Source: Minisyncoccota bacterium
GTDB taxonomy: Bacteria; Patescibacteriota; Minisyncoccia; Phycocordibacterales; PALSA-1337
Assembly: GCA_041671485.1 (NCBI GenBank)
Contig: JBAZBL010000001.1
Coordinates: 23,037-87,036 of the forward strand
Direction of reading: 5' to 3'
Length of the DNA: 64,000 nucleotides
Of this stretch, positions 3,488 through 63,448 are shown piece by piece. The translations under genes were made by a program, and so were the position numbers. Each line of letters starts with the position of its first letter. Position 1 is the first letter of the stretch. Below the pieces are notes generated by a model, which ran no database searches, was not told the DNA's origin, and saw nothing but the letters and a program-made list of their open reading frames with translations.

Positions 3488-3495
3488 TAAAATAT

Positions 3496-3876: not shown

Positions 3877-3890
3877 AATAATATATTCAA

Positions 3891-4322: not shown

Positions 4323-4328
4323 AATACC

Positions 4329-4934: not shown

Positions 4935-5011
4935 ACTAAGTCAATTTTTAGTGTATAATTATATGTCCATTTGCATTTTTAATAAAAATCTTAATTTTAA
5001 TAAAATATAAT

Positions 5012-19196: not shown

Positions 19197-22100
19197 ATGA
19201 TACACATGAAAAAGAAGACATACGGAGGTCAGACCTCCGGAGACAAATCAAAAGAATATAGTCCCTCTTTGATTGAAAATAAATGGCAAAGAAAATGGAA
19301 ATCTTCCAAGCTTTTCAAGACAAAAGAAGATACAAAGAAAGATAAATATTATATTCTAGACATGTTCCCATATCCTTCTGGTGAAGGACTTCATGTCGGG
19401 CATCCCAAAGGCTATATAGCGACCGATATAGTATCACGATACAGGAGAATGAGTGGGTACTCGGTTCTGCACCCTATGGGTTTCGATGCTTTCGGACTTC
19501 CTGCAGAGAATTATGCTATCCAGATGAAGACGAACCCAGCTATTGCAGTGTCTCAGAATGTCAAAAGATTCAAGAAGCAACTAGAAATTCTTGGCTTTGA
19601 CTATGATTGGTCTCGAGAAGTGAATACTACAGATCCAAAATACTATAAATGGACGCAATGGATCTTTCTACAACTTTTGAATAAGGGTCTAGCTTATGAA
19701 TCATATGAGCCGATAAACTGGTGTCCTTCTTGCAAAACTGGTTTGGCAAATGAAGATGTCGATGATGGTAGGTGCGAGAGGTGTGGTACTCCTGTAGAGA
19801 AGAAGCCGATGAGACAATGGGTCTTGAAGATCACTGATTATGCAGGAAGGTTGCTTGAGGATTTGGATGTAAAGAATAATGATGATAAACCCTTACTCGA
19901 CTGGCCGGAATCGATCAAAGAGGCTCAAAGGAATTGGATAGGGAGGAGTGAGGGAGCGGAGATAAAATTTCAAATTTCAAATTTCAAAGGTCAAAAATTA
20001 GAAAAGAACATAAAAGTCTTCACCACCCGCCCTGACACCATATTCGGCGTGACTTATTTGGTATTGGCACCAGAGCATAGATTGGTCAAAGAACTTTTGC
20101 CATTGGTTGAAAACAAAAAGGAAGTTGAGGAATATGTTGGTCGTGCCAAGAATGAGACCGAAATAGAGCGCACTGATGCCAAGAAAGAGAAGACCGGCGT
20201 TGAGATGAAGGGTATCAAGGTGATCAACCCCGCAAATAGAGAAGAGATACCTGTTTGGATAGCAGATTATGTTCTTGCCGACTATGGTACAGGCGCCGTC
20301 ATGGCTGTACCCTCACACGATGAGAGAGATTGGGATTTTGCGAAGAAGTTCGACTTACCGATAAAGCAGGTCATTGCACCTTACTTCACAGACAATCCTG
20401 GAAGTAAAGATGCTGTTAGAGATAATAAGAAAACAGTAAAAAGAAAGACTGCATATGCTCTTGTCTTTGACAAAAAAAATGATAAATTTTTATGCTTGAA
20501 TTGGGAAAAATTTGGTTGGCACTCTGGGATCATTGGTGGAGTTGATGATGGTGAAAGTTTCAAAGATGCAGCTTTACGAGAAATAAAAGAAGAAACTGGT
20601 TATAAAAATTTAAATTTGATCAAGAAATTGGGAGGTGAGCAACACAATCATTTCTTTGCTACTCATAAAGATGAAAACCGATATGCAATTGGCCATGGCA
20701 TGCTTTTTGAACTTGTGAATGATGAAAAAGAATTGGTTCTCGAAGAACATAGTTTAAACCATAAACCTGTGTGGATTGATATGGATAAAATGGAAGACTG
20801 GCTCAATTTGTCAGCTTTTAAATATATGTGGAAAGCTTACAAATCTAATTCGGATTGTTTTACTGGATATGGTAGGTTGTTAAATTCTGAGAAATTTGAT
20901 GGGACAGAAAGTAAAGATGTGATGAAAGAGATTACAGATTTTGTCGGTGGTCAGTGGGTCACAAAGTATAAACTCCGAGACTGGGTATTTTCTAGACAAC
21001 GGTATTGGGGCGAGCCGATACCTGTAATACATTGCACAAATTGTTTTGCAAAAGAGAATAAAACAAACGCAATTATTTTGCATGGCTGTCCTTCGAATGT
21101 TGAAAGAGCGATGGATCCTAAAAGACAAACATATGATAAACATTGGATACCATGGACAAAGAAACAATTAGAAATAGCAGGTATTGAGACACTAGTGCCA
21201 TTGATGCCAGAACCATGGCATATGTCATATGAAAAATGGAAGATAGAATTTGATAAATTACCGATAACTGAAAATAGTATTCTAATAGGACATAGTTGTG
21301 GATCTGCTTTTCTGGTTAGATGGTTGGGAGAGACAAAGAAAAAAGTGAGGATGCTTGTCTTGGTTGCACCTTGGAAAATAAATAGTAATAATGATGAATT
21401 TAGAAATAAATTCTATACATACACTATTGACAATGAAATTAAAGACAAAATAAAAAATATCTTTATCTTTACATCAGATGATGAGGAGGATAATGGAAAG
21501 AAAAGTGTCAATATCTTCAGAGAATCTTTGAATGCAAAAGTAATTGAATTAAAAAAACATGGTCATTATATTTACGGTGATATGAAAACAGAAGAATTCC
21601 CTGAATTAATAAATTTGATAAGTTCGTTTTCTTCCAAAGTAGTACCAGTTCCCGAGAAAGACCTACCAATAAAACTACCCAAAGTAAAATCCTATGAACC
21701 CACAGGAACAGGCGAATCGCCACTCGCTAATATAGACAAATGGGTCAATGTAAAGTGTCCAAAGTGCAAAGGTAAAGCCAAAAGAGAGACAAATACAATG
21801 CCACAATGGGCTGGCTCGTCTTGGTATTATTTGCGATATGAAGATCCAAAGAATAAAAAAGCATTCGTTGACACAAAGAAAGACAAATACTGGTCACCAG
21901 TTGACCTCTATGTAGGCGGAGCAGAACATGCCACGCGCCACCTCATATACGCTCGATTCTGGCACAAATTCTTGTACGATATAGGCATAGTCTCAACCAT
22001 CGAACCATTCATCAAACTTCAGAACGTAGGACTCATAATAGGTGAAGATGGAAGGAAGATGTCAAAAAGATTTGGTAATGTTGTCAATCCTGATGAAATT

Positions 22101-22802
22101 GTCGAAATATATGGAGCTGATACACTCCGAATATATGAAATGTTCATGGGTCCATTTGATCAACAGATCGCTTGGAATACGAACAGTATGGTTGGTTCTA
22201 GGAGATTTATCGAAAAAGTTTGGAGACTAAATAATAATCTAAAGACGAATAGAGGATCGACCGTCGCAGGGGCGACAAATGGCGACTTGGCGAAGCCAAC
22301 GAAGGCATTTAGTCGCCCCGAGGAGGGAGATCCGTATTTAATTTTGATTGATAAAACCCTTCACAAAGCAATTAAAAAGGTAACCGAAGACATTCAAGGA
22401 CTAAAATTCAATACTGCATTGAGTACACTTATGATTGCTGTGAATGAAATGGAGTCTTCGGGATCGGTGACTAGAGAACAATTCGAAATATTACTGAAAC
22501 TGCTAGCACCATTTGCTCCTTATGTAACAGAAGAATTGTGGTCTGGACTTGGTAATAAGAAATCGATACATATATCAGAATGGCCAGAGTATGATCCGAG
22601 CCTAATAGTTGATAATGAAGTAAAAATCATTGTTCAAGTGAATGGCAAGGTTCGTGGTTCATTTGACGCTGATCCAGATATAAATGAAGAAGAAATGAAG
22701 AAGAAAGCGCTCAATCTACCTGAAGTGAAAAAGTGGATTGATGGCAATCAAATCAAGAAAGTGATCGTCGTTAAAAGTAAGTTGGTGAGTTTGGTGGTTT
22801 AA
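19197..22802 (+). CDS. leuS: Leucyl-tRNA synthetase with two embedded extra domains (NUDIX hydrolase; alpha/beta serine hydrolase) and one in-frame palindromic element
   Basis: 1201 aa, versus ~800-880 typical. HIGH motif 'PYPSGEGLHVGHPKGY'. KMSKS motif 'KMSKRFGNVV'. 'YKLRDWVFSRQRYWGEPIP'. C-terminal anticodon-binding domain. The NUDIX box is 'GGVDDGESFKDAALREIKEETG'. A GxSxG hydrolase nucleophile 'IGHSCGSAF' lies within the insertion. Confidence 0.9.
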   Translation: MIHMKKKTYGGQTSGDKSKEYSPSLIENKWQRKWKSSKLFKTKEDTKKDKYYILDMFPYPSGEGLHVGHPKGYIATDIVSRYRRMSGYSVLHPMGFDAFGLPAENYAIQMKTNPAIAVSQNVKRFKKQLEILGFDYDWSREVNTTDPKYYKWTQWIFLQLLNKGLAYESYEPINWCPSCKTGLANEDVDDGRCERCGTPVEKKPMRQWVLKITDYAGRLLEDLDVKNNDDKPLLDWPESIKEAQRNWIGRSEGAEIKFQISNFKGQKLEKNIKVFTTRPDTIFGVTYLVLAPEHRLVKELLPLVENKKEVEEYVGRAKNETEIERTDAKKEKTGVEMKGIKVINPANREEIPVWIADYVLADYGTGAVMAVPSHDERDWDFAKKFDLPIKQVIAPYFTDNPGSKDAVRDNKKTVKRKTAYALVFDKKNDKFLCLNWEKFGWHSGIIGGVDDGESFKDAALREIKEETGYKNLNLIKKLGGEQHNHFFATHKDENRYAIGHGMLFELVNDEKELVLEEHSLNHKPVWIDMDKMEDWLNLSAFKYMWKAYKSNSDCFTGYGRLLNSEKFDGTESKDVMKEITDFVGGQWVTKYKLRDWVFSRQRYWGEPIPVIHCTNCFAKENKTNAIILHGCPSNVERAMDPKRQTYDKHWIPWTKKQLEIAGIETLVPLMPEPWHMSYEKWKIEFDKLPITENSILIGHSCGSAFLVRWLGETKKKVRMLVLVAPWKINSNNDEFRNKFYTYTIDNEIKDKIKNIFIFTSDDEEDNGKKSVNIFRESLNAKVIELKKHGHYIYGDMKTEEFPELINLISSFSSKVVPVPEKDLPIKLPKVKSYEPTGTGESPLANIDKWVNVKCPKCKGKAKRETNTMPQWAGSSWYYLRYEDPKNKKAFVDTKKDKYWSPVDLYVGGAEHATRHLIYARFWHKFLYDIGIVSTIEPFIKLQNVGLIIGEDGRKMSKRFGNVVNPDEIVEIYGADTLRIYEMFMGPFDQQIAWNTNSMVGSRRFIEKVWRLNNNLKTNRGSTVAGATNGDLAKPTKAFSRPEEGDPYLILIDKTLHKAIKKVTEDIQGLKFNTALSTLMIAVNEMESSGSVTREQFEILLKLLAPFAPYVTEELWSGLGNKKSIHISEWPEYDPSLIVDNEVKIIVQVNGKVRGSFDADPDINEEEMKKKALNLPEVKKWIDGNQIKKVIVVKSKLVSLVV
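19223..19239. repeat. Palindrome CGGAGGTC-A-GACCTCCG (family also at 49341 and 51121)
   Basis: Perfect 8-bp arms. It lies at codons 9-15 of the leuS ORF. Confidence 0.8.
19965..19985 (+). repeat. Heptanucleotide tandem repeat (AAATTTC)x3 inside leuS
   Basis: AAATTTCAAATTTCAAATTTC. The same heptamer, x4, occurs at the 5' end of the M23 peptidase gene. Confidence 0.85.
22254..22333. mobile_element. GC-rich palindromic miniature element (family A) inserted in-frame in leuS
   Basis: GGATC...CGTCGCAGGGGCGACAAATGGCGACTTGGCGAAGCCAACGAAGGCATTTAGTCGCCCCGAGGAGGG...GATCC. About 93% identical to the infB copy (44490-44576) and the topA copy (40424-40530, reverse complement). It encodes 'STVAGATNGDLAKPTKAFSRPEEGD' within an otherwise AT-rich gene. 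Confidence 0.75.
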
Positions 22803-37196: not shown

Positions 37197-37514
37197 TTAT
37201 GCAAATCCAACAACCTCTTTCTGAATTCTCCTGGCATAACTAATATCTTTTAAACTTATTCTCCAAGCTTTCTTGATAAAACCATGAACAATGTATGCTT
37301 TATTATTCTGGAATACGTACAAGATTCTTATTTGATTTTTACCAAGAGTTCTAAGTTCAAATAACCCCTTACCCAGACTTTTAGAATCAGGCATCCCTAA
37401 TAAATATCCGAATTTTTCCAGAGAATTTACTGTCTTTTTTATGCGGGAGGATGTGATCTTGTCTAGACCATTTATAAATTCTCGCACTTTTTCATTCCAA
37501 TAAATTATTTCCAT
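37197..37514 (-). CDS. RelE/HigB-type toxin (Gp49-like, DUF891 family)
   Basis: 'GLFELRTLGKNQIRILYVFQNNKAYIVHGFIKK' matches the Gp49/HigB family pattern. It lies upstream of an XRE antitoxin, the reversed HigBA order. Confidence 0.7.
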   Translation of the reverse strand: MEIIYWNEKVREFINGLDKITSSRIKKTVNSLEKFGYLLGMPDSKSLGKGLFELRTLGKNQIRILYVFQNNKAYIVHGFIKKAWRISLKDISYARRIQKEVVGFA

Positions 37515-37598
37515 ATCCGCATAATACATCACACATAAGAAAATGCAAAAAGATGGCATTGAATGACTGTGTCCACTTTATGGGGTACAGATCAATTG

Positions 37599-37680
37599 TG
37601 CCGGGAGAGAGAATCGAACTCTCATGGATTACTCCGTACGATTTTGAGTCGTATGCGTCTACCAATTCCGCCATCCCGGC
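37599..37680 (-). tRNA. tRNA-Leu (CAA), class II
   Basis: Reverse complement reads GCCGGGATGGCGGAATTGGTAGACGCATACGACTCAAAATCGTACGGAGTAATCCATGAGAGTTCGATTCTCTCTCCCGGCA. Anticodon arm TACGA-[CTCAAAA]-TCGTA, with a long variable arm. Confidence 0.9.
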
Positions 37681-37769
37681 TTGTTATTCAATATTACAAG
37701 AAATACAACTAAAATCAATGATCAAAATTACAAAAAAACTTATAAGAATTTCGCAAATAGAAATATTGA

Positions 37770-38255
37770 TTAAAGGGGTAGGTATTGTCGGCCTGTATCA
37801 AATGCAGTATCCGATATAGCTACCATCCATTGTTTATTCTTGCCATCACTACTTCGCCACCTTTTTTCAAATTTATCTATCTCCAATGTAAATCCTTCAC
37901 CATTCCAAGGATCATTGAGGATAATATTATCTTCATCTATACCAATAACAACAGCATAATGACCTTCTTCATTTGAAGGTTCAATAAAATTTATGATCAC
38001 TGGGTGACCATTATTTATTTGGTCTTTGATAGAGATTATTGATGTATCATTATCAACAAAAGCATATAATCCAGACTTTACTATTACATGAATGATGCCA
38101 CCGTGTTTTGTCCCATCTTTTCCTTGTTTAGAAATCTCTTTCAATTCAAGTTCTGATTTCTTTATACCATAATATTCAAGAACCATACGCAAAGAAGCAG
38201 GACCACATGATGTATTTGAATTTTGACTATAGAATGGTACCTTTATTGTTTTCAT
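37770..38255 (-). CDS. C39-like papain-fold cysteine peptidase
   Basis: 'PFYSQNSNTSCGPASLRMVLEYYG' carries the Gln and catalytic Cys. 'EGHYAVVIG' is the His region and 'NDPW' the Asp/Asn region. Confidence 0.7.
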   Translation of the reverse strand: MKTIKVPFYSQNSNTSCGPASLRMVLEYYGIKKSELELKEISKQGKDGTKHGGIIHVIVKSGLYAFVDNDTSIISIKDQINNGHPVIINFIEPSNEEGHYAVVIGIDEDNIILNDPWNGEGFTLEIDKFEKRWRSSDGKNKQWMVAISDTAFDTGRQYLPL

Positions 38256-38290: not shown

Positions 38291-39253
38291 ATGTCCACAC
38301 CATATGTAAACAATGCGATATTCTGGATAGAGATAGAGAAGGTCAGCCCAAATCCATATCAACCGCGACGAGAATTTGACGAGATGGCTTTGAAGAGCTT
38401 GGCAGAATCCATAAGGATGTATGGTGTACTCCAACCCCTAGTTGTGACTAGGAAAGAAGTCGAAAAAGATGATGGTGGACTTTCTGTAGAATATGAACTC
38501 ATTTCAGGTGAAAGGAGACTACGCGCATCGAAACTAGCTGGATTATCACAAGTACCAGCTCTCATAAGGAGCGGGGAAGACGGAGCGAGAGAAAAACTAG
38601 AGATCGCTATCATAGAAAATCTACAAAGAGAAGATCTCAATCCTGTTGAGAGAGCAAGATCTTTCAGTAGACTTATCAAAGAATTTGGCTTGAAGCAAAT
38701 ACAAGTCGCAGACAAAGTAGGCAAGAGCCGTGAATATGTAGCTAACACTTTGCGTATATTGGCTTTGCCAGAAGAAATACTAACTGCTTTGGGAGAAGGA
38801 AAAATATCAGAAGGGCATACAAGACCGCTTCTTATGTTATCGGGAAGACCCGAAGAACAGCTTGTTCTATTCAAGGAAATTTTGATCAAGAAATTATCAG
38901 TGCGTGATGCAGAATCAGCTTCGAGAAGGGTTGCAACAGATAGGGTCAGGAATCGTGACAAATATCTGGACCCAGCAGTACTTGAAATTGAAAAGAAACT
39001 GAACGAAGCTCTAGGTACACGAGTAAAGGTTGATAGGACAAATGAAAATGGTGGTACTGTAAAAATTGACTTCTTTTCTACAGATGATCTTCGCGCATTA
39101 TTGGTCAAACTAGGCGCAGAATTGAATCTAGGTGAAGCAACAAAAGCAGACGCCAAATTGCAAAATAATTCACCAGTTGATGATCGTTCACCAGATGAAA
39201 TACAAAAAGAAGAGAACGAGGATCTTTATTCTCTGAAGAATTTTTCGGTTTAA
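38291..39253 (+). CDS. parB: Chromosome partitioning protein ParB/Spo0J
   Basis: ParB box 'GERRLRASKLAGLSQVPALIR', an HTH 'IQVADKVGKSREYVANTLRIL', and a C-terminal dimerisation region. Confidence 0.88.
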   Translation: MSTPYVNNAIFWIEIEKVSPNPYQPRREFDEMALKSLAESIRMYGVLQPLVVTRKEVEKDDGGLSVEYELISGERRLRASKLAGLSQVPALIRSGEDGAREKLEIAIIENLQREDLNPVERARSFSRLIKEFGLKQIQVADKVGKSREYVANTLRILALPEEILTALGEGKISEGHTRPLLMLSGRPEEQLVLFKEILIKKLSVRDAESASRRVATDRVRNRDKYLDPAVLEIEKKLNEALGTRVKVDRTNENGGTVKIDFFSTDDLRALLVKLGAELNLGEATKADAKLQNNSPVDDRSPDEIQKEENEDLYSLKNFSV

Positions 39254-53339: not shown

Positions 53340-53780
53340 ATGAAAATCATTTTACTCAAAGATGTTCCGAAGCTTGGTCATCGTCTCGATATCAAAGACG
53401 TTAGTTCTGGCTATGCCACAAATCTCCTCATACCAAAAGGAATGGCTGTATCTGCTACAAAAGAAATGATAAGAAAAACAGAAATAGAAAAGGCTATGAT
53501 AGAAGGGGAGAAGAGGGTACAACAAGATCTATTGGTCAAAAATATCCAAGACTTGGAAGGTATCACTATCACCATGAAGAGTAAGGCCAATGAAAAAGGC
53601 CACCTTTTTGCAGGACTTCATAAAGAAGCTATAGCAGAAGAATTGGCAAAACAAACAAAACTAACTATAGATCCAACATTTATTCAGCTAGAACACCCTA
53701 TCAAAGAAATTGGTGAGCACAATATAGAGGTCAAGGGAATAAAAAAATCAGTCAAGTTCAAACTAGTGATTGAGACCTAA
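53340..53780 (+). CDS. rplI: 50S ribosomal protein L9 (start at ATG 53340)
   Basis: 'MKIILLKDVPKLGHRLDIKDVSSGYATNLLIPKGMA' matches the L9 N-domain. Confidence 0.88.
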   Translation: MKIILLKDVPKLGHRLDIKDVSSGYATNLLIPKGMAVSATKEMIRKTEIEKAMIEGEKRVQQDLLVKNIQDLEGITITMKSKANEKGHLFAGLHKEAIAEELAKQTKLTIDPTFIQLEHPIKEIGEHNIEVKGIKKSVKFKLVIET

Positions 53781-53786
53781 ATATAA

Positions 53787-54059
53787 TTAGACGATACTTA
53801 CTAGTTTCTTTCTATCAATATCGTTATTGAAAGAGATTTTTCTTTTTGTAGCAAATTGGACAGTTCCATCCTTCAAAGCAAAAAGGGTATAGTCTTTACC
53901 CATACCTACATTCCTGCCTGGCAAGACTGTAGTACCACGCTGGCGGACGATTATTTGTCCAGTATTGGCATTTTGGCCATGGTTAATCTTGATACCAAGG
54001 AATTTTGGATTTGAATCGCGACCATTTTTGGTTGATCCTTCTGCTTTACGATGGGCCAT
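53787..54059 (-). CDS. rpmA: 50S ribosomal protein L27
   Basis: '[61 protein letters not shown]' is canonical L27. It is not adjacent to rplU here. Confidence 0.92.
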
Positions 54060-54298
54060 AAAATTAAATCAAAGATTAAAGATAAAAAATCAAAAATTAG
54101 TATAAAAATAGCTTAACATGGGACTATTCTTTATGCAAGTCTCTAAATATGGCTCAAAATAAGGGTATTTATGGTGTTTTATATGGCTTTGTTGAGCCAT
54201 ATTCTGACAGTATGGACTTGACTTTATGCCTTTGAGGTGCTAAGCTATATGCAAATGAGTAAAGTGGGCACCATGCTTACGAAGCTCGTTTTTTATTT

Positions 54299-54766
54299 AT
54301 GATTGAACTTACAACAGGTGTAATCTTCCTAATGTCATCCCTATACGGCTCTCAACATGCAGATATGCAAGTTGCAAATATTGCAAATGCACAGATGCAG
54401 GACGAAGAAAAAGTAGAGAAGGTGGCAATTGTGAAGATTGTTGATCCAAAAGACATCGAAGCATATATCCGCAAAGAATTTTCTGATAAGCCAATCCTAA
54501 TTGAAATTGCATGGTGCGAATCACGCTTCAGGCAATTCAATGAAAATGGAACAGTAATTCGTGGTGAAAAAAATAGCAAAGATGTCGGTGTGATGCAGAT
54601 CAATGAAAGATTCCATGCCGAAGATGCAGTCGAACTAGGATATAACATATATTCAACACAGGGTAATACAGCATTTGGTAAATATCTTTATGAGAAGTAT
54701 GGAACAGATCCATGGAGCGCGTCCAAGAAGTGTTGGAGTCAGTCGGGTGATCTCGCGAAGAAGTAA
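54299..54766 (+). CDS. Small lysozyme-like / lytic transglycosylase (SLT-like) domain protein
   Basis: N-terminal hydrophobic segment. Catalytic-Glu context 'IAWCESRFRQ' and 'GVMQIN' fit the family-1 lytic transglycosylase pattern. Confidence 0.6.
   Translation: MIELTTGVIFLMSSLYGSQHADMQVANIANAQMQDEEKVEKVAIVKIVDPKDIEAYIRKEFSDKPILIEIAWCESRFRQFNENGTVIRGEKNSKDVGVMQINERFHAEDAVELGYNIYSTQGNTAFGKYLYEKYGTDPWSASKKCWSQSGDLAKK
54639..54766 (+). repeat. 128-bp direct repeat, copy 1 (3' end of SLT-like gene)
   Basis: 126/128 identical to 57332-57459. Similarity continues ~45 bp further downstream into terminator-like hairpins (GGCTCC..GGAGTCTTTTGTT). Confidence 0.9.
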
Positions 54767-54922
54767 AATTATTATTCAAGAACAAAACAAGAGGCTCCCC
54801 AACAGGGGAGTCTTTTGTTATACAGTACCGCGCTTTACACACCATGTCGCACAATAGAAACTTGCAAGTCACATTGTCGCACAACTGTGGATAACTCTTT
54901 TGATCGTGTTTTATCCTGAAAT

Positions 54923-55324
54923 CTACTTGTCGATGATACATCGATATTTAGCAGTCACAGCTTGTCCAGGAGAAAGGTAAGGATACAATTTACTGTCAGT
55001 CAATTTCTGTAAGCTTACTGGAGAACAAATAGGATCAGCGGGACCCGATAACGAAATTGAGGAACCGGTACTATCTCCCTTACAATAACCGACTGATTCT
55101 CCAGTAGGAGTAAAATAATATGTAGTAGCCTTGGCGACATCTGCTAATTTCATTAACTTTCTCTCTATTTTACAAATACCCAGCTCCTTCTCGGTCTCAT
55201 CAAAATACTTACCTGATTGGACGGTCACATTCTCAACTTGGTTCAGATAAAAGAATAGAGCGAGTCCACACAAAATTATAATCACAAGCACTACTAGAAA
55301 GGAGATTAAGATTTTCTTTTTCAT
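54923..55324 (-). CDS. Hypothetical membrane-anchored protein (inside repeat-flanked cassette)
   Basis: 133 aa. N-terminal TM ('ILISFLVVLVIIILCGLALFFYL') and several Cys residues. Confidence 0.5.
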   Translation of the reverse strand: MKKKILISFLVVLVIIILCGLALFFYLNQVENVTVQSGKYFDETEKELGICKIERKLMKLADVAKATTYYFTPTGESVGYCKGDSTGSSISLSGPADPICSPVSLQKLTDSKLYPYLSPGQAVTAKYRCIIDK

Positions 55325-55351
55325 AGATTAAGCATACCACATTTAGCCAAC

Positions 55352-55986
55352 TTGTGGTATAATATTCCACATATGAAAAACTCACAAAAAGGTTTTATAA
55401 ATATTATTATTGCTATAGTAGTTGTCGTCGCGATCGCTGGATATGTTGCTTGGGATAACAATCTGATCCCCAAAAATATTCTTTCTAATAACAGCGAGAA
55501 ACAGGAAAATGTGGAAATAAATACAAGACTCTTCCGATCGGTCAATCATACAAAAACATCCAATATGGAATTGAAATAACTCCACCTGCGAATTGGGCAG
55601 TAGACGAAAGTAAAAAAGATGGCCAGGTAGTTGGTTTTATTGAGAGATCGCAAGATATTTTATCAATCATATCGGTAACAGCCATTTCTGATCCTGATAT
55701 TACACCGTCTTTCTTTGATCAATACATTGATAACGGGATTCAGCAAGCTCGTGCTACACAAGGAGTTACTTTTATTGGTAGCAGTAAACTCGAATCCAGC
55801 AACCTCCCTACGTACTTGATCGAGTTAAAAATGAATGTAGGGAACAAGCTTATGCACGCTTTACAATTGAGTCTTTTAGCTAAGTCGGGACAAGTGTTCA
55901 TTATTACTGGGATGAGTGAGGATACTCAATGGATAAATCGTAAAGACTTGATCAGAGATTCACTAATGAGTTTCCATTTGCTGTAA
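55352..55986 (+). pseudogene. Frameshifted gene for a TM-anchored exported protein (N-terminal part 55352-55579 in one frame, C-terminal ~140 codons continue in the -1 frame to 55986 without any start codon)
   Basis: Frame A gives 'MWYNIPHMKNSQKGFINIIIAIVVVVAIAGYVAW...'. The frame ending at 55986 is open from 55492 and reads '...KNIQYGIEITPPANWAVDESKKDGQVVGFIE...'. The frames probably join near the A5 run at 55552-55556. Confidence 0.5.
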
Positions 55987-56130
55987 TTTAGAGGTGTCTA
56001 GTATTACCATTACCGAAATGCTCATGTCTATGTTATCAACACATTTGCTATTAACTTTTAATCTGAATTGTCTATACTAGTAGAGTCATCAGAAAACGCT
56101 GGCCTGTACGGCGTTTTTCTTTGTATATAA

Positions 56131-57174
56131 CTATGCTCTTTTCCACTCCTCTATATCAGGATGAAAATCAACTTGATACTCTGGGATTCCTAGAGAGATT
56201 CCATATTCTTTAGCTTCGTTGTACTGGTCTTTACTTTTCCTGTCTATGAGAAATACCTTGTTTTTGAAAATAATATAGTGATGTGATTCACTCTTGAAAT
56301 CTGCATACCAATTATATTTACTATCGAGGGCTTTGGATATTTCCTCTGCCACCTCTTTTGATTCTTTTACTGGGATTATGACTGAGTGCATTGTCCATTG
56401 AGATACCCATGGAGTTTTATGCTCATCAGTGACTTTTTCAATTTCTGTTGAGATAATTTCGATTTTCTTAAGTATATCCTTATTTTCCAGAGACTCATCA
56501 ATAATTACTCCCTTAAATGGTTGTTTTCGGAGCAATTTCTTTAGGTCACTTTCTACTAGGACTCTTTGTGTGTCAGTATTTGATATCATAGATTGGAGTG
56601 GCTTAGTCGAATTCTTGGGATTAGACTTGTCCTCAATAGAAAAACCGATATACTCCACGTGCTTTTTCTTCCGGTCACGCACCCACTTGATAGCAGGGAG
56701 GAGATCAGCGTCAGAACTTACGACAATAGCTATATCATATACATTCTCAACTGCCCCTACGATGAGATCTGTGGCGAGCATGACATCAATACCTTTTTCT
56801 CTTTTTCGCTCGTATGTTATTTCGGTGATACCAGCTTTTTTGAGTTTCTGATATTCTTTCATGCGATCATCTACAGTTATAGTTTCAGTGCGGGTTTTCA
56901 ATTTGCTTGTGCGTAATATCCAGCCATACTTCTTGAGTTCGGCAAAAAACCTCGTCTGTCGTGCCATTGAATATTTTGATTTGAGATTTCCTTCTTGTTC
57001 CCGGACTGTACCGATGTAGTAGCGCTTGTGACCAGATGAGATAGTTTTGCCGTTCGCAAGAAGTGCGGTGAATGCTTCAAAATCAAAACCGAGTTCTGAT
57101 ACCCCGATCTTCTTCAGGGCTATATGGTGGAGATTCCCTCCGTCTATAAAAATGGCAGCTCGGTTCTTATTCAT
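56131..57174 (-). CDS. NYN-domain (LabA-like PIN) protein with uncharacterised C-terminal extension
   Basis: 'AAIFIDGGNL' and 'DIAIVVSSDADLLPAIKWVRD' are NYN/LabA acidic motifs. The ~150-aa C-terminal region has no recognised domain. Confidence 0.65.
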   Translation of the reverse strand: MNKNRAAIFIDGGNLHHIALKKIGVSELGFDFEAFTALLANGKTISSGHKRYYIGTVREQEGNLKSKYSMARQTRFFAELKKYGWILRTSKLKTRTETITVDDRMKEYQKLKKAGITEITYERKREKGIDVMLATDLIVGAVENVYDIAIVVSSDADLLPAIKWVRDRKKKHVEYIGFSIEDKSNPKNSTKPLQSMISNTDTQRVLVESDLKKLLRKQPFKGVIIDESLENKDILKKIEIISTEIEKVTDEHKTPWVSQWTMHSVIIPVKESKEVAEEISKALDSKYNWYADFKSESHHYIIFKNKVFLIDRKSKDQYNEAKEYGISLGIPEYQVDFHPDIEEWKRA

Positions 57175-57331
57175 GGATATATTGACTGAATCATATCAAA
57201 AAAACGGCTAATAACAAAACTCGCACACACATTGCTGTGGCGCGAGTGACTTGTACTTATAGCATTACAAATAACGTTGCAGAAGTCAAGGGATTACATG
57301 AGGATACAGAAAAGGGAAGTGTCAGTATTTT

Positions 57332-57459
57332 GATATAACATATATTCAACACAGGGTAATACAGCATTTGGTAAATATCTTTATGAGAAGTATGGAACAG
57401 ATCCATGGAGCGCGTCCAAGAAGTGTTGGAATCAGGCGGGTGATCTCGCGAAGAAGTAA
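57332..57459 (+). repeat. 128-bp direct repeat, copy 2 (orphan 3' fragment of the SLT-like gene; preceded by in-frame stop)
   Basis: It matches 54639-54766 with 2 mismatches. It has no upstream coding continuation. Confidence 0.9.
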
Positions 57460-57630
57460 TCTAAACTAATTGCACTAATAGCAATTTCAAAAAACACAAA
57501 AGGCTCCACGAAATGGAGTCTTTTGTGTTGGAAAAAATGAATACTTTGTTAAAGTTTCTGCCAAAAATACTTCCAACACATTTTTTCATCGTTGGGAACT
57601 TCACAGAAATTTTTTGTTTGATACAATTAC

Positions 57631-58245
57631 GTGATGATGAAGCAAGAAATCATTCAACAACTCCACAGAAACTTTGATGATTACGTCCAGAAGACTGACG
57701 GTGGAGTTGAATTTTGGTTTGCCCGTGATTTGCAGGTGTTGCTTGGATATGACGAGTGGCGTAATTTCCTTAAGGTTGTTGAGAAGGCCAAAATTGCGTG
57801 TAAAAAAAGTGGTTTAGTCATTGAGGATCAATTTGTTGATGTCAACAAGATGATCGTTGCCGGTAAAGGAGCGGAGCGCGAAATTGATGACATTTCACTA
57901 ACCCGTTACGCCTGTTATCTCATTGCACAAAATGGTGACCCTAACAAAGAACCTATCGCTTTTGCTATGGCCTATTTCGCGATACAGACGCGCAAACAGG
58001 AACTGATCGAAAAAAGATTGAACGAACTGGAAAGATTAACTCTTCGTGAAAAACTTTCTGGTTCAGAGAAACTATTGTCCGGAATCATGTACGAACGGGG
58101 TGTTGATAGTGCTGGTTTCGCACGCATTAGAAGCAAGGGGGATCAGGCTCTATTTGGTGGTAGAACAACTTTAGATATGAAAAATAAACTAAATAAATTA
58201 GTCATACGTTTACCTTCAGTCTATCGATATGAACTACAAAGGTAA
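57631..58245 (+). CDS. dinD: DNA damage-inducible protein D (DinD family), C-terminally shorter than E. coli DinD
   Basis: 'EFWFARDLQVLLGYDEWRNFLKV' and 'LTRYACYLIAQNGDPNKEPIAFAMAYFAIQTRKQEL' align with the E. coli DinD motifs (EFWSARELAPLLDYRDWRNFQKV; LSRYACYLVVQNGDPAKP...YFAIQTRRQEL). Confidence 0.75.
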   Translation: MMMKQEIIQQLHRNFDDYVQKTDGGVEFWFARDLQVLLGYDEWRNFLKVVEKAKIACKKSGLVIEDQFVDVNKMIVAGKGAEREIDDISLTRYACYLIAQNGDPNKEPIAFAMAYFAIQTRKQELIEKRLNELERLTLREKLSGSEKLLSGIMYERGVDSAGFARIRSKGDQALFGGRTTLDMKNKLNKLVIRLPSVYRYELQR

Positions 58246-58456
58246 GAGTCCACAAGTTGGCGGCCCTCTTGTTCATACCTATTACTCCAAAGATGAATTC
58301 ATAAAGAAATGTGCAGAGTGGGGAATAGATATTATTGAATATTCAAACTGTGGTTTCTGTCAGAAAACTATTTATGGTTCGTGTACATTCAGAGATGGAA
58401 AACTTTGTTGTTATAGTTGTGAGTTGAAAACAGAACATAAAAAAGTTCAGGGATAA
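58229..58456 (+). CDS. Small Cys-rich (zinc-ribbon-like) hypothetical protein
   Basis: 75 aa with 'CGFC...CTFRDGKLCCYSC'. It overlaps the dinD end in another frame. Confidence 0.4.
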   Translation: MNYKGKSPQVGGPLVHTYYSKDEFIKKCAEWGIDIIEYSNCGFCQKTIYGSCTFRDGKLCCYSCELKTEHKKVQG

Positions 58457-58563
58457 TAATTACCGGAACATTCTGTGCTAGAGGGGATAGTGGTGATGCG
58501 CCAGCCTTGGCCAGATTTATCCTCTACATACCATGTCGCACAATATATGTTGGGTACACTATA

Positions 58564-58911
58564 TCATCTAACTATGGGGAGGAGGGGTGAAGTGGTCGAC
58601 ATCTTTGGTACTTGATCTCTTGTAATAGCTGGACCGCCATCCTTCATCCTATCTATCGTAGTGAAGAATGGATCCCATATATATGGCAAGAAGAATTTGT
58701 CCCAAAGATATGTTGCAGGTCTCTTCAGATAGTCATTCCAGCCAACTACAACCAATTCTTTGGCATAGATGAGGTTATCATGGACTACAGGAGAAGCTAC
58801 AATGTTCCTTAGATTGAAACCAAAGTATCCTAGAATGATGAGAATAGCGACAATAAATATGACTGTTCTCAATAGCCCTCCCCTTCTGTAATAAATTTTT
58901 TTTGAATTCAT
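58564..58911 (-). CDS. Hypothetical membrane-anchored protein
   Basis: 115 aa. One TM helix ('TVIFIVAILIILGYFGF'). Confidence 0.45.
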   Translation of the reverse strand: MNSKKIYYRRGGLLRTVIFIVAILIILGYFGFNLRNIVASPVVHDNLIYAKELVVVGWNDYLKRPATYLWDKFFLPYIWDPFFTTIDRMKDGGPAITRDQVPKMSTTSPLLPIVR

Positions 58912-58963
58912 TTGTGAGACTTAAATGATTAATCAATATAATTATCTTATTAATAGCAAAAAA

Positions 58964-60274
58964 TTACAAATAGGAAAGTGGATTGAGATATGCTTTGAAA
59001 TCAGCGAGTGGTATAAGTGCACCTGCACAATTCCTGCTTTGCCCAGCAGTAAGCTTCTGGATCTCTACACCCTCTGTAGCATATACACCAAAGTGTAGAT
59101 GTGGCCCTGTAGTGTATCCTGTATTACCTGTGTAACCAACGATTTGTCCTACTGAAACATCCTGACCTTTTTGTACTGATTGAAGTGATAAATGAGCATA
59201 TAGTGTTGATAAACCATTTACATGTTTGATCATGACCCATTTACCATATGAATAACATCCTCTCACCAAATCTGTATTGCCGACACCTATGACAGTACCT
59301 GATAGAGATGCCTTTATAGGTGTTCCTATAGATGCCCTGAAGTCTATACCATTATGCCCCTTCCCTCCATAAACTTGTGGATTTGCTGTAGCAAAAGATG
59401 TATTGCCGAAATATTGAGTAATAAATACTTTATCGAGTGGCCAAGACAATACACCAGATCCGGTGCTAGGTAATTTTGAAGCATCAACTGCCAGTTTCAA
59501 TTGTGATTCATAAGCTAGTACTTCCCTTTCGAATGCTTCTTTTTGGGCCAACTTTTCAGACATCATCTTTTTGTATTGGGATTCTGATTGTTTTGTTTCC
59601 TTGAGAAGAGTATTTTTCTCTGATTGAGTATCTATTACAACTTGCCTCTGGTCTTTGAGTTGCTTATTCAACCTTATCAATTCATCTTTTGCTTTCTCTG
59701 TCGCTTTTTTATTTGCTTCAAGATTGGATTTCACTAGACGTAGATTCTCGATGCGCTTCAAAAGGCTTCCTTGTATTGAACTTAATTCATCCATAGAATT
59801 CCATGCAGAAAGTAATGAATTGCTACTTAATAAAACCTCTATTAGCGATTGATCTTCTGTTCTCTGTATAAGTGCCAATGAATGAGATATTATCCTTTTA
59901 TCATCTATTATAGTATCTTCTTTATTTATAATTTCCGAAGACAATCCTTGTATTTCATCATTCTTTACCCCTATCTTATTCTCTGTGAGCTGGATATCAG
60001 CCTTCAATTTCTTCTCTGTAAGATCAAGTGATTTGACTGTTGCAGATAATGTATTCACTTCTTTACCTAGATCCTCAATCTCTTTTTGATATCCTAGAAT
60101 CTCTTTCTCAAGATTTTGTATATCTGTATTCCTCTGATCTATTTTTTCCTGCAATTGAGAAGCTGTTTGCGCATTGGAATTTGGTATAGTAAATATGAGT
60201 AAACAAAATAGTGCAAAGAATAAAAATAATACTCCGACATTTGAAATTTGAAATTTGAAATTTGAAATTCTCAC
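58964..60274 (-). CDS. M23 family metallopeptidase with N-terminal coiled coil (EnvC-like); GTG start coupled to gltX stop
   Basis: M23 zinc motifs 'GHNGIDF' (HxxxD) and 'GNTGYTTGPHLHF' (HxH), a long coiled-coil region, and a signal peptide. Confidence 0.88.
   Translation of the reverse strand: MRISNFKFQISNVGVLFLFFALFCLLIFTIPNSNAQTASQLQEKIDQRNTDIQNLEKEILGYQKEIEDLGKEVNTLSATVKSLDLTEKKLKADIQLTENKIGVKNDEIQGLSSEIINKEDTIIDDKRIISHSLALIQRTEDQSLIEVLLSSNSLLSAWNSMDELSSIQGSLLKRIENLRLVKSNLEANKKATEKAKDELIRLNKQLKDQRQVVIDTQSEKNTLLKETKQSESQYKKMMSEKLAQKEAFEREVLAYESQLKLAVDASKLPSTGSGVLSWPLDKVFITQYFGNTSFATANPQVYGGKGHNGIDFRASIGTPIKASLSGTVIGVGNTDLVRGCYSYGKWVMIKHVNGLSTLYAHLSLQSVQKGQDVSVGQIVGYTGNTGYTTGPHLHFGVYATEGVEIQKLTAGQSRNCAGALIPLADFKAYLNPLSYL
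60239..60266. repeat. Heptanucleotide tandem repeat (ATTTGAA)x4 (coding strand AAATTTC x4) at codons 3-12 of the M23 peptidase gene
   Basis: Plus strand ATTTGAAATTTGAAATTTGAAATTTGAA. The repeat unit is not a multiple of 3. Confidence 0.85.
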
Positions 60275-61608
60275 ATCAGTTTACTTATTGCCAGATCTAT
60301 TCTGACCAGTGATTCGTCTTTACCAAGAATATATGCAGAGCTAAATGGATCTGGTGACTTCTCTTGGCCCGTAAGAGCAAATCTAAATGGCCATAAGACG
60401 TCACCTTTGCCATTCCCTTCTGCATATGGCCAGATTGCACTCTTCACTACTTCACTGGTGAAATTATCTTTGGCAATTGTATCTAATAATTTCTTTATCT
60501 CTTTCAAATGATTTGAAGCTATTTCTTTATTTGGATTCTTTTTCCACAAAAGAGAGTCAGCAGTATATTCTCCTAGGTCTTGAATAAAATTCATCTCACT
60601 TCCCTTCTCAAAAATTTTTGCTATATCACCGAAAGAATGTATTTTCTCACGAATGATATGTAATGCTCTGCCAAATAATTCTGGCTTATTGGAGAGCCAT
60701 TTAGGGACAAATTTAGAGCAATGATCTATAAAATCTTCATTGCTCAACTTTGACATATATTGTTTATTGAACCAGTCCAATTTTTCTCTATTGAATACTG
60801 CTCCGGCTTTTTGTACCTTTTCAATATTGAATTTCTCAATCATTTGATCGATACTCAATATCTCTTCATCATTTCCTGGATTCCAGCCGAGTAAGACTAG
60901 AAAATTGAGCAGTGCATCCCTCAAATATCCTTGTTCTTTATAATATTCTACAGAAACTATTTCTCCATGCTTTCTCTTGGATATCTTTTCTCTATTCTCG
61001 GAAAGTATGAGTGGAATATGTGCATATCGAGGTAGTGACACTTCATTTATCGCTTCCCATATGAGTATTTGTCTCGGAGTATTGGATAGATGCTCTTCAC
61101 CACGTATCACATGAGTTATGCCTGAAGTGATATCATCAACGACGTTCGATAGATGGAAAATAGGTTCATCGAGACTTTTGGCAATAACAAAATCACCTAG
61201 TTCTGTAGTATTGAACTTGACTTGACCTTTTATGATATCATCTACCGTAACATCTTTATTTGGATTCTTGAATCTTATAACTTCATTCCTATCTCCTTCT
61301 TTTTTTATTTCTTCTTTGGAAATATATGCTTTTCCAGATGATATGAGTTTTTCTATGTATTTCCTATGAATTGGGAAATTGTCAGATTGTTTGTATGTCA
61401 GATCGAAACCTATACCAAGCCATTTGAATGCATCGGTAATTCCTGTAATATATTCTTCTTTATTCCTCTCTATATCTGTATCTTCTATCCTCAATATGAT
61501 TTGCCCGCCATTTTGCTTTGCAAAAAGATAATTGAACAATGCCGAACGAGCTCCTCCTACATGGAGAAAGCCAGTTGGTGATGGTGCAAAACGGGTAATG
61601 ACTTTCAT
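60271..61608 (-). CDS. gltX: Glutamyl-tRNA synthetase
   Basis: HIGH motif 'PSPTGFLHVGGARSALFNYLFA'. KMSKS-like motif 'KISKRKHG'. Confidence 0.92.
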   Translation of the reverse strand: MKVITRFAPSPTGFLHVGGARSALFNYLFAKQNGGQIILRIEDTDIERNKEEYITGITDAFKWLGIGFDLTYKQSDNFPIHRKYIEKLISSGKAYISKEEIKKEGDRNEVIRFKNPNKDVTVDDIIKGQVKFNTTELGDFVIAKSLDEPIFHLSNVVDDITSGITHVIRGEEHLSNTPRQILIWEAINEVSLPRYAHIPLILSENREKISKRKHGEIVSVEYYKEQGYLRDALLNFLVLLGWNPGNDEEILSIDQMIEKFNIEKVQKAGAVFNREKLDWFNKQYMSKLSNEDFIDHCSKFVPKWLSNKPELFGRALHIIREKIHSFGDIAKIFEKGSEMNFIQDLGEYTADSLLWKKNPNKEIASNHLKEIKKLLDTIAKDNFTSEVVKSAIWPYAEGNGKGDVLWPFRFALTGQEKSPDPFSSAYILGKDESLVRIDLAISKLM

Positions 61609-61843
61609 ATGGGTATTATAGCAAGAAAGTATATGAATTTCTTTATGCTAGAGTTATCAACAACAAGTAAATTTGACTATATATATCCAATTTGTTAGTC
61701 TTTAATTAGAAGTATGCAATAATAACTTACGAGGTGCTCCGATGTTCCCTCAGAATATCTGGGGCTTGAGTTGGAGAACACCACCTTGTGAGACGCTACT
61801 TCTAACAAAGAACCCCTTTCCACTTCGGTCAGGGATTTTTTGT

Positions 61844-62509
61844 TTATATTATAATCGATTTTCCATTGAACAATTCCCTCCCCTTTCCAATAATATTTTT
61901 CTTCAGAATTTTGAAACATTCCTCACCTAGTTTTCCTTTTTCAAGATATCGTGCCAAAGCTCCTGCAATCCAGTCGGCAATTTGAATATTCACTACCGCA
62001 GTTGAATCAACCATTTCAATTTGTAAAACTACACCCTTTGGCAAGGATGGTAACAGACGAGCTTTTAGGACTTCCTTGAATTCTGTCTCGGACATACCAC
62101 TCAATCTTCTACGGTCGCAGAAAACACGAAACTCTTTATCAGTTGTCGGTAAATATGATGTTAGTATTTCGCCGACTATATTTGTATATAAAAGTCCGCT
62201 CTGTAATTTATTTTTATGATGATACTCTGCTGGAATATTTCTATGAAGTAAATAGGCAAAATGTATTCGAACATCTAGTTTTGAAATCTCTCTCAAAGTC
62301 TTTAGGCGTAAGGCATCAGAAAATCCGGTACTTGCCCATTTAATCTCACTCAGATCACGCATCTTTCTAGGAAAATGGCCACGAAGCCATGCTCGAAATC
62401 CCTTTGCTGTTCGCCGAACATTGCCAACAGTAAATGAAGCAACAATAAAATAGTTTTTATTACTGTACTTGGAAAATTGTCCACTTTCATCAAGAAAAAT
62501 ATATGGCAT
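61844..62509 (-). CDS. DUF3800-family protein
   Basis: N-terminal 'YIFLDESG' and C-terminal 'IQIADWIAGAL' match the DUF3800 signature motifs. Family membership is recalled from memory. Confidence 0.6.
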   Translation of the reverse strand: MPYIFLDESGQFSKYSNKNYFIVASFTVGNVRRTAKGFRAWLRGHFPRKMRDLSEIKWASTGFSDALRLKTLREISKLDVRIHFAYLLHRNIPAEYHHKNKLQSGLLYTNIVGEILTSYLPTTDKEFRVFCDRRRLSGMSETEFKEVLKARLLPSLPKGVVLQIEMVDSTAVVNIQIADWIAGALARYLEKGKLGEECFKILKKNIIGKGRELFNGKSIII

Positions 62510-62587
62510 GTAGCAAATATGCTAACGTAAATTAGAATCTCCAGCAACTTAAAAGAGAATAGAAAACATGTTATAATATCTCAGTAT

Positions 62588-63205
62588 ATGGAAGTCTCAT
62601 TTAATGATCTACCAGTTGGACCATATTCAGAAGAAATGTGGCGAAAACAATGGCATGGCGTTACAAAGCCTCGCGGTGTTGCCGAAGGTAGACTTTCAGT
62701 AGTTGAACTTCACAATGAGCATGTCCTCTGTGTCACCTGCTTAAAAGATAAGTGTGGCCCTGATCAAGGTGGAACATCATGGAGTTCTTGTTTTGATAAG
62801 TCTTACGAAGAGGCAACGGTTGAATATAAGGTGAGGATTAGCAGTGACTTTGACTATAAGCGAGGCGGTAAACTTCCGGGATTTTGTGGTGGTTCAAGCC
62901 CTATGGGAGGAAGGAATACGACTGATGGATTTTCCGCACGAGTAATGTGGAGAGAGTTGGGTATGATGACTCAGTATGTATATTATTTGGAAAAAGATAC
63001 GACGAAACAATGGGGACAAGATTTTATCTGGACTAAAGCAGAAAACAAACAAGTTCCGATCACTTCTCACATGTGGAAAATGTGGGACACCTTAAAGACA
63101 CATCATGAAGATAGGGTGTATTTGACACATAGGGTATGGCATACAATAAAAACTTATATCAAAATGAATACTCCAGACAAAGAAGATAGTAAACTTATTT
63201 CTTGA
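62588..63205 (+). CDS. Hypothetical protein, possibly beta-jelly-roll (polysaccharide-lyase/lectin-like) fold
   Basis: 205 aa, W/Y/G-rich ('KLPGFCGGSSPMGG', 'YVYYLEK'). The family assignment is uncertain. Confidence 0.35.
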   Translation: MEVSFNDLPVGPYSEEMWRKQWHGVTKPRGVAEGRLSVVELHNEHVLCVTCLKDKCGPDQGGTSWSSCFDKSYEEATVEYKVRISSDFDYKRGGKLPGFCGGSSPMGGRNTTDGFSARVMWRELGMMTQYVYYLEKDTTKQWGQDFIWTKAENKQVPITSHMWKMWDTLKTHHEDRVYLTHRVWHTIKTYIKMNTPDKEDSKLIS

Positions 63206-63448
63206 TTCGATGGAGATGAAGTCGCCAATCTAACATTACGCTTTAGAAATGATAAATCATTTGGTATAGATGCATTCAAATTTGCAGTATTTTTTGGCAG
63301 GAATGATGAAACATGGGCACCAGAAAAAGACGAAAAGATTTACTTCAAAGATTTCAAATTTTCTTTCTAAAAGATATCTAGTAACCTTTCTCACAATCAA
63401 AAAACCAGTATAAAACTGGTTTTTTGATTCACATAATGTGAGAGTATA

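Follow-up and report, generated by a model that had tools for sequence, protein, structure and literature searches.

A putative recombinase-less island at a conserved dif-like intergenic site in a Patescibacteria genome, with a 128-bp gene-end repeat as a likely captured flank

We analysed a 64,000-nt stretch of DNA from a Minisyncoccota bacterium (assembly GCA_041671485.1, contig JBAZBL010000001.1, positions 23,037-87,036 of the forward strand). This stretch is called the window hereafter, its positions serve as coordinates, and the sequences compared with it carry L numbers. Our subject is the acquired DNA that lies between a lytic transglycosylase-like (SLT-like) gene and an operon encoding a 115-aa membrane protein, an M23 peptidase and a glutamyl-tRNA synthetase (mem115-M23-GluRS; 58564-61608, minus strand). 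The SLT-like gene (54299-54766, plus strand) is intact and encodes 155 aa with a weak match to PF01464 (E 7e-4). Its closest orthologue (P0001 on L003) is 95% identical, and the synteny L9-L27-SLT is conserved. An exact-protein look-up found no record of the 155-aa form; gene callers had used the start of a 144-aa form.

The last 128 nt of the SLT-like gene are one copy (b, 54639-54766) of a direct repeat, the other copy of which (b', 57332-57459, plus strand) is an orphan fragment of the 3' end of SLT. The search for repeats in the window gave 126 identities over 128 nt (98.4%), with mismatches at 54738/57431 and 54743/57436, and a longest exact stretch of 99 nt. The left edge of the repeat is sharp; on the right the identity stops at the TAA stop codon, beyond which the copies have only a related hairpin in common. 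The hairpin after b (t1, 54781-54819, plus strand, stem 54795-54810) is the native SLT terminator and is followed by a spacer (sp1, 54820-54836, plus strand), both being orthologous to the terminators and spacers of L003/L009 and L004. The hairpin after b' (t2, 57491-57530, plus strand, stem 57504-57518) is an SLT-type terminator of a different allele: locally it is matched best by the native terminators of SLT in L041/L046 (36/40) and L063 (33/38), not by t1. Between the repeat copies lies a segment that we call cassette X (54857-57331), with a gene for a 133-aa membrane protein (mem133, 54923-55324, minus strand), a PsbP-like exported-protein pseudogene (55352-55986, plus strand) split by a frameshift into 55352-55579 and 55492-55986, and a gene for a 347-aa NYN protein (NYN347, 56131-57174, minus strand) preceded by a leader hairpin. 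Beyond b' and t2 are a truncated DinD/Bro-N gene (DinD', 57631-58245, plus strand) and a 75-aa Cys-rich, zinc-ribbon-like gene (zn75, 58229-58456, plus strand) that misses about 50 N-terminal residues.

The 128-nt repeat is real, and is present in three independent datasets. NCBI proteins MFA6404551-MFA6404555 belong to the source genome, and samples ERZ27249449 and SRR6484324 to this lineage. A MEGAHIT contig from another sample, assembled with k=141 (L001), is 99.7% identical to the window over 15.5 kb and has both copies in the same order. This disfavours an assembly artefact, because k is larger than the 99-nt exact part of the repeat and both copies are kept. In a third dataset, of Logan k=31 unitigs, one unitig (L002) stops at 57361 and another (L010) begins at 57401, as a 99-nt exact repeat predicts. 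A collapsed or artefactual duplication had been a concern of a sequence-only reading of this DNA; the contig and the unitig breakpoints support a true two-copy repeat.

The boundaries of the insertion were obtained by comparison with related genomes. In the nearest relatives (L003 and L009, two contigs of one lineage, ~89% nucleotide identity) the order is L27-SLT-mem115-M23-GluRS, with SLT followed directly by the 115-aa membrane gene and ~70 nt from the SLT stop codon to a conserved motif. The same empty arrangement, SLT directly followed by mem115, is found in L004-L006, where SLT is 65% identical. L003 aligns with the window as two blocks (1-1308 with 53522-54856, and 1288-4408 with 58525-61628), and the 21 nt common to both blocks are part of a 24-nt repeat (D2, 54833-54856 and 58522-58545) that bounds the insertion. 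The homology with L003/L009 ends after ...ACCATGTCGCACAATA (54856) and restarts at the same 16-mer (58530), so that the junctions fall in a conserved site between genes, ~70 nt downstream of the stop codon of SLT. The SLT 3' end, t1 and spacer are contiguous in L003/L009 and orthologous to window 54639-54856. Relative to these nearest empty-site genomes the insertion is 3.69 kb long (54857-58545) and includes DinD' and zn75. The left junction, in the left copy of D2 (54833-54856, plus strand), is a hybrid site (ATGTCGCACAATAGAAACTTGCAAGTCA): it reads ATGTCGCACAA-TA, i.e., one arm of the conserved site (54844-54854) and the TA of its centre, and then the island sequence GAAACTTGCAAGTCA. The right junction (58522-58560, plus strand), which contains the right copy of D2, holds the conserved site in its intact form, a 28-mer preceded by ACATACC that ends 3 nt before the mem115 stop codon. 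The alignments indicate that the acquired DNA is inserted at this conserved intergenic site and not at the 128-bp repeat.

The intact 28-mer (58533-58560) is composed of the arm ATGTCGCACAA, the AT-rich 6-bp centre TATATG and the arm TTGGGTACACT, in an 11-6-11 layout. D2 belongs to an element of which 37 nt are 100% identical in L004-L007, genomes that are otherwise ~65% identical to the window. Exact-pattern scans, for which the left arm had to be exact, revealed one copy per assembly in 11 species genomes of the candidate phyla radiation (CPR) and further copies in 31 metagenome stretches, one per contig; the window itself has one intact and one hybrid copy. We also checked lineages picked by SLT protein similarity alone (L003/L009, L004, L007, L060 and L063), and all of them have ATGTCGCACAA-TATAT(G/C)-TT. 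The start of conservation in L060 coincides with that of the predicted arm (ATG). The core of the site is exact even where SLT is only ~50% identical. Beyond the bases forced by the search, the centre TATAT(C/G) hardly varies, nor does the TT with which the right arm begins; the outer 9 nt of that arm vary. The inner AA-N6-TT dyad is also nearly invariant, and some right arms are a degenerate inverted left arm (e.g., in L023 and L038). In every interpretable case the site lies immediately 3' of mem115/M23/GluRS, as a rule 59-145 nt past SLT, and this operon is its right-hand neighbour in ~30 distinct genomes.

The site resembles dif, the site at which Xer recombinases resolve chromosome dimers; such sites measure about 28 bp, with two 11-bp arms in imperfect dyad symmetry about a centre of 6-8 bp. 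Compared with the dif of E. coli (GGTGCGCATAATGTATATTATGTTAAAT) and of B. subtilis (ACTTCCTAGAATATATATTATGTAAACT; reference sequences from PMC3025954), it has 16-20 identities over 28 positions in the best ungapped match, and nearly all variants match in one register. The best cases, both with 20/28, are L011 (p ~0.0005) and L016 (p < 0.0005 in the shuffle test), and for many variants the same test gives p of only 0.01-0.1. The site is not itself the terminator of the operon, since in L011 and L013 separate canonical terminators flank it, and a search of the locus against Rfam at E <= 1 gave no match at the site. It is at the start of a run of minus-strand genes of at least 10-15 kb, and gene orientations converge there. 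It also lies within 23 kb of the cumulative GC-skew maximum of the window, and we count this position on the side of a dif-like site. A shorter motif, AACATATATT, the reverse complement of the site core AATATATGTT, occurs 5 nt inside the left edge of both repeat copies (54644-54653 and 57337-57346). We set this pseudo-site at the left edge of b aside: its register is unfit for an Xer-type crossover, and the match may be chance (probability ~0.01).

The same interval is occupied by different DNA in other lineages. The gap between SLT and the site is 3.4 kb in L040 (a PKD/PG-binding surface protein and a NYN protein, NYN216), more than 9 kb in L041/L046 (NYN211, a methyltransferase, a GNAT protein and others), 1.7 kb in L042 (a methyltransferase and a Cys-rich protein) and 3.4 kb in L031 (a YkuD/S11 peptidase, PL14 and a Cys-rich protein, zn97). 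The left junction ...ATGTCGCACAATA, GAAACTT, is identical in the window, L040 and L041/L046 (form CACAATA / GAAACTT). The left end of the window island (54857-54896, plus strand), GAAACTTGCAAGTCACATTGTCGCACAACTGTGGATAAC, within which is a second, degenerate copy of the arm (ATTGTCGCACAA), is 100% identical over its 40 nt to that of L040 even though the SLT proteins of the two are 58% identical; a related end is present in L041/L046. A cassette at a second locus of L009, between GluRS and DUF7282, has a 96% identical island end, an 87% identical version of the first 544 bp of X, an 88% identical mem133 homologue, the 5' region of the PsbP-like gene and a NYN gene (NYN207) 89% identical to NYN216 of L040. 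A scan of a viral collection with the island end gave 0 matches. Upstream of the intact site, partial copies of the arm are found in L015 (57 bp), L035 (85 bp) and L036 (~30 bp), probably the scars of earlier insertions or deletions at the hotspot. Judged by these shared ends and junctions, the window island is a member of a cassette family that inserts at the conserved site. None of the other occupied loci, the L040 and L041/L046 cassettes included, has an SLT fragment, which makes the 128-bp repeat a specific feature of this lineage and not of the element family.

These comparisons bear on what the sequence-only reading had made of the locus. Its description of the repeat, 98% identical and followed by a related hairpin, is confirmed by the repeat search, the L001 contig and the unitigs, and the genes it saw within (membrane protein, frameshifted exported-protein gene, NYN gene) are as described. 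Its proposal that the DNA was acquired horizontally is supported as well: the comparison with related genomes finds the site empty in L003, L009 and L004-L006, at the downstream 28-mer. The proposed mode of entry, integration into the 3' end of the gene with restoration of its reading frame, does not stand. The empty sites map to the 24-nt repeat of the site ~70 nt downstream, t1 and sp1 are native, and the cassettes of L040 and L041/L046 abut the same site and island end with no SLT duplication. Nor is the truncated dinD immediately outside the acquired DNA, as had been thought: relative to the nearest empty-site genomes it is inside.

If the 128-bp repeat is not the point of attachment, what is it? 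The two pairs of repeats alternate along the locus: b, hybrid site, b', intact site. A deletion across the site repeats would yield an empty site of the L003 type, and one across the 128-bp repeat would yield SLT-t2-DinD'-zn75-site plus a circle of 2,693 bp. The locus has the interval from the SLT 3' end to the site twice. The first, 54639-54856, is by its alignment a short allele orthologous to the interval of the nearest relatives. The second, from 57332 to 58560 (b', t2, DinD', zn75, spacer and site arm), reads as a long allele, i.e., a decayed, divergent second version of the interval from the SLT 3' end to the site. The native interval of L063 is collinear with b'-t2-...-zn75-site (SLT end 74.7%, terminator 87%, zn gene 71% and site 96% identical). 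The product of zn75 has 53% identity with zn97, the neighbour of the site in L031, and 57% with zn118 of L063 (71% nucleotide identity over 215 nt). In L031 and the Taylorbacteria L063/L065, homologues of this gene belong natively to the stretch from SLT to the site. Ahead of the right-hand site, ~45 nt are similar to the spacer native to L041 and L029. Whichever way the locus is decomposed, X moves together with chromosomal flank, and the start of b' is joined illegitimately to the right end of X (57331/57332), which is why we speak of flank capture. The 128-bp repeat seems best described as a captured piece of chromosomal flank and not as an attachment site. Outside the hairpin, t1 and t2 and both spacers are essentially unalignable. 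In contrast, b' is 98.4% identical to b and only 90.6% to L003; its two differences from b are unique to it, and we found no donor lineage with the b'-specific residues (WNQAG) among SLT homologues. Near-identity of b and b' next to unrelated t1 and t2 requires allelic diversity within the population or gene conversion. Two alleles that co-existed in one population, or a later gene conversion, fit this pattern; a simple duplication in situ does not.

The reading that we favour, and think probable with a good measure of reserve, is that 54857-58545 is a composite and decaying island without its own recombinase, similar to mobile elements that use Xer for their integration (IMEXs), at a site that is a candidate dif of the Patescibacteria, and that the 128-bp repeat is captured flank. 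The host locus is the interval between the convergent SLT and mem115-M23-GluRS operon on a chromosome of the Paceibacteria (Patescibacteria/CPR). A circular form of the island bearing a look-alike site would have recombined with the chromosomal site by means of a recombinase provided in trans; as with IMEXs, the Xer system of the host is the most plausible source. A chromosomal flank (the long allele) may have been joined illegitimately to X at 57331/57332 and moved along with the NYN cassette, which would give the resulting order of short allele, X and long allele.

The site carried by known IMEXs (GGI, TLCphi and EludIMEX-1) retains one arm and a portion of the centre, with a divergent second arm; an intact dif is regenerated, and the elements have no integrase (PMC5357621). 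The window island likewise is at one conserved dif-like chromosomal site and has no recombinase of its own; its left junction is a hybrid (one arm and part of the centre) and its right junction is intact, as in L040 and L041/L046, and various islands re-use the one site. It differs from them in its host phylum, the Patescibacteria, in that its Xer dependence is inferred and in that the conserved arm is nearer the XerD side. The cassettes here are also small (1.7 to more than 9 kb, with a 40-nt end and a NYN gene) instead of phages or islands with type IV secretion systems, and the window copy has a captured chromosomal flank in addition. A second parallel is with the pdif (or dif) modules of Acinetobacter, which are described as small adaptive or defence cassettes bounded by XerC/D sites, found in varied contexts and hosts and lacking their own recombinase (PMC12907356, PMC11705084). 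The window cassettes share with these their small size, defence-type cargo, Xer-like sites and lack of a recombinase. The Acinetobacter modules are mostly plasmid-borne, with complete sites in alternating orientation, whereas here there is one chromosomal site, with a hybrid and an intact copy in direct orientation. The captured flank recalls specialised transduction, as of gal and bio by lambda.

In specialised transduction, flanking chromosomal DNA is illegitimately joined to an element and is partially duplicated upon re-insertion. By analogy with it, or with homology-facilitated illegitimate recombination, X may have been joined to the chromosomal flank next to the site; the difference is that no phage or packaging function was seen at the window locus. 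When integrative islands and prophages use a gene 3' end as their target, they bring a substitute 3' end with them; the repeat then has the intact gene to one side and an orphan fragment to the other. The window has such a direct repeat of a gene 3' end, with an intact gene and an orphan fragment; it differs in the lack of an integrase, in the empty site being at the downstream 28-mer, and in the native terminator beside the intact gene.

Several observations weigh against this reading. The cumulative GC-skew maximum of the window, which is of the terminus type, is at 35.6 kb and not at the site, 23 kb away from it. We do not place the terminus, because skew at third codon positions is close to zero from 35.6 to 58.5 kb and does not tell replication from transcription effects near the site. 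The 64-kb window was found to encode neither Xer nor FtsK. ParB and DnaB, which are often origin-proximal, are encoded 10-20 kb from the site, against which must be set that no parS, dnaA or cluster of DnaA boxes was found in the window. The invariant arm fits the XerD arm of classical dif better than the XerC arm, whereas most IMEXs show the opposite. A RecA-mediated Campbell insertion could be served just as well by the identical 20-24 nt. The second-locus cassette of L009, a genome otherwise with an empty site, has no recognisable copy of the site beside it. Finally, flank capture can be read in either direction, b' being 98% identical to b yet t2 unrelated to t1. That this is a dif site, with Xer as the mover of the cassettes, is a claim that we put at little better than balanced.

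Between the GC-skew peak (35.6 kb) and the site (58.5 kb) are genes for ParB (38291-39253), TopA, RmuC, RecR and DnaB. The only perfect DnaA-box 9-mer of the 64 kb (TTATCCACA, 54886-54894, minus strand) lies within the island end and is kept in L040, L041, L042 and L009. A location near the origin, suggested by ParB, DnaB and this box, was rejected: there is no parS and no dnaA/dnaN, and the number of boxes is as expected (22 vs 22.3).

Elements are also known to enter at gene ends, and the repeat itself might have been used, which would keep part of the sequence-only reading alive: a 2.69-kb circle may have entered by a Campbell-type insertion through the 128-bp homology. An element of 2.6-2.7 kb (t1, spacer, hybrid site and X with one 128-bp copy) would then have recombined within the 128 bp, regenerated SLT and displaced b' together with t2-DinD'-zn75-site. 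This would account for the 98% identity of the copies and for the two derived substitutions being in b'. Deletion through the repeat would leave SLT-t2-(DinD')-zn75-site, collinear with the native intervals of L063 and L031, and the divergence of zn75 (53-57% identity), being close to that of SLT (50-52%), is compatible with a vertically inherited long allele. We nonetheless consider it unlikely. The nearest relatives (~89% nucleotide identity) have the t1-type allele, ~80% identical to window t1-sp1 as vertical descent predicts, and the long-allele 'empty' state is found only in distant lineages. There is neither an integrase nor a counterpart of an att core at the junction of X and b', and relatives of the cassette elsewhere have no SLT duplication. 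Such an element would also hold a site arm fused to the island end; it would therefore derive from a chromosome with X at the site, which would remain the primary attachment point.

A different question is whether the 28-mer is dif at all. It could be the attB of integrase-encoding elements, or a host regulatory sequence that acts as a homology anchor, the island being a decayed element or satellite that RecA, or a dedicated integrase acting in trans, would have moved. In favour of this, no Xer gene was found in the window and the skew does not place the terminus; an identity of 20-24 nt suffices for RecA-dependent Campbell insertion, and a phage contig has a site-like 28-mer between terS and terL. 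We regard this as rather improbable, a little more so than entry at the SLT 3' end. No integrase was found in ~8 occupied loci nor in 20.4 kb of the phage contig, and the phage match is within chance expectation. An attB alone would leave unexplained a base-perfect intergenic 16-23-mer across genomes whose proteins are ~50% identical; the layout, the AA-N6-TT dyad and the 16-20/28 dif matches in one register point to an Xer-type site, and the separate terminators of L011 and L013 show that it is not the operon terminator.

The phage contig in question is a 25-kb tailed-phage sequence (IMGVR_UViG_3300025018_001617; L045/L055/L058/L059). Its version of the site is more palindromic (ATGTCGCACAA, TACCTA, TTGTACGGCGT; L058 7889-7903). 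It was the sole match to the site in the viral collection, a number within chance expectation for the pattern, and no integrase was found in the 20.4 kb. The 28-mer could be a phage attP or a chance match.

Lastly, an in-situ tandem duplication of the interval from the SLT end to the site, followed by divergence and separate insertions of X and DinD, or else a chimera of two strains, is highly improbable: the order b, hybrid site, b', intact site is formally one duplicated unit, but 98% identity of b and b' next to t1, t2 and spacers that are unalignable outside the hairpin is incompatible with uniform divergence, and a chimera is excluded by the k=141 contig of another sample and the unitig breakpoints.

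Returning to the IMEX-like island, a wider proposition can be entertained, which we hold to be possible though somewhat short of probable. The 28-mer ATGTCGCACAA-TATATS-TTN9 would be the dif of a large clade of Paceibacteria, and cassettes with the 40-nt end and a NYN gene would spread among divergent CPR hosts via host Xer, with occasional flank drag that shuffles the terminus-proximal region; this would be the first IMEX system of the CPR. We found no description of dif, Xer, IMEX or NYN islands in Patescibacteria in the searchable literature. Members of the CPR/Patescibacteria have not been cultivated and their genomes are very small; little has been described of their mobile elements and of the sites that serve chromosome maintenance. 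A candidate dif that can be recognised from sequence would provide a landmark of the terminus in fragmented metagenome-assembled genomes, the 28-mer would be a concrete substrate for CPR Xer recombinases, and the locus would be a hotspot for the exchange of defence-type cassettes. That exchange would cross between quite different hosts, because the 40-nt island end is identical where SLT proteins are only ~58% identical. The locus also illustrates that a long direct repeat of a gene 3' end can be a passenger of an insertion instead of its attachment site.

The cargo of the island looks defence-like and largely degenerate, going by its predicted NYN nuclease and DinD/Bro-N fragment. NYN347 matches PF01936 with E 8e-14 (52.8 bits, cutoff 24.2), its AF2 model (pLDDT 76.5) matches 2qip and the NYN domain of MARF1, and five acidic residues (D11, D130, D136, D155 and D157) are invariant in the alignment. 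The structural model supports its classification as a NYN/LabA-like predicted nuclease; a fold search with its C-terminal domain gave no informative match. NYN proteins of ~220 aa are very common in Patescibacteria, and the 347-aa form is rare and found in other contexts. L056 shares the NYN module and its leader with the window, as far as position 57290. We checked L056 and L057, which hold the closest relatives of NYN347, for the native right end of X; their contexts are unrelated and without a site. The leader of the long-form NYN genes has a hairpin with a T-run (window ~57200-57245, minus strand; L056 ~720-770; L057 ~745-790), with compensatory base changes across these three divergent loci, i.e., three sequences only. 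Its role may be that of an attenuator, or of a target through which the nuclease regulates itself.

DinD' matches NF008573 with 254.8 bits (cutoff 242) over profile positions 1-191 of 288 only, so that ~90 C-terminal residues are gone; it also matches PF02498. PADLOC assigns NYN347 to the candidate family HEC-09, DinD' to PDC-S13 and a nearby DUF3800 gene to PDC-M04A, in line with the defence-type content that had been proposed from sequence. The absence of an integrase, likewise noted before, is upheld: no recombinase was found among the open reading frames (ORFs) of the window island (Pfam, NCBIfam, PADLOC) or among 10 proteins from the islands of L040, L041, L042 and L031 (Pfam). With E. 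coli XerD as the query, phmmer gave no homologue in a set of 789 ORFs (each of at least 100 aa) from 441 kb.

The interval between GluRS and DUF7282 is a second variable hotspot (window 61609-63448; L009 8552-11334; L063 ~4690-5000). In the window it contains a DUF3800-V RNA (RF02964, 82.6 bits, 61708-61803, plus strand), the DUF3800 gene (61844-62509) and a PL14 lyase. It is empty in L004 and L012, and in L009 it holds an inverted NYN cassette of the same family as X. A remnant copy of the DUF3800-V RNA and gene (83% over 325 nt) is within the SLT-to-site interval of the Taylorbacteria L063. In a compositionally different genome (L043, 3358-4450, oriented), a gene for a 271-aa NYN protein is 277 bp from a copy of the site arm, outside the usual synteny; this copy is inside a 9-bp inverted repeat and has an ABC transporter on its other side.

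Elsewhere in the window, other genes of the defence or mobile type are found at 11420-13890 and 37197-38255 (an AccI-like restriction enzyme, an Eco57I-like methylase, a HigB/Gp49-like toxin and a C39 peptidase). The leucyl-tRNA synthetase ORF (19197-22802, 1,201 aa) has an unusual architecture, with embedded Pfam NUDIX (416-532) and Ser_hydrolase (646-805) domains.

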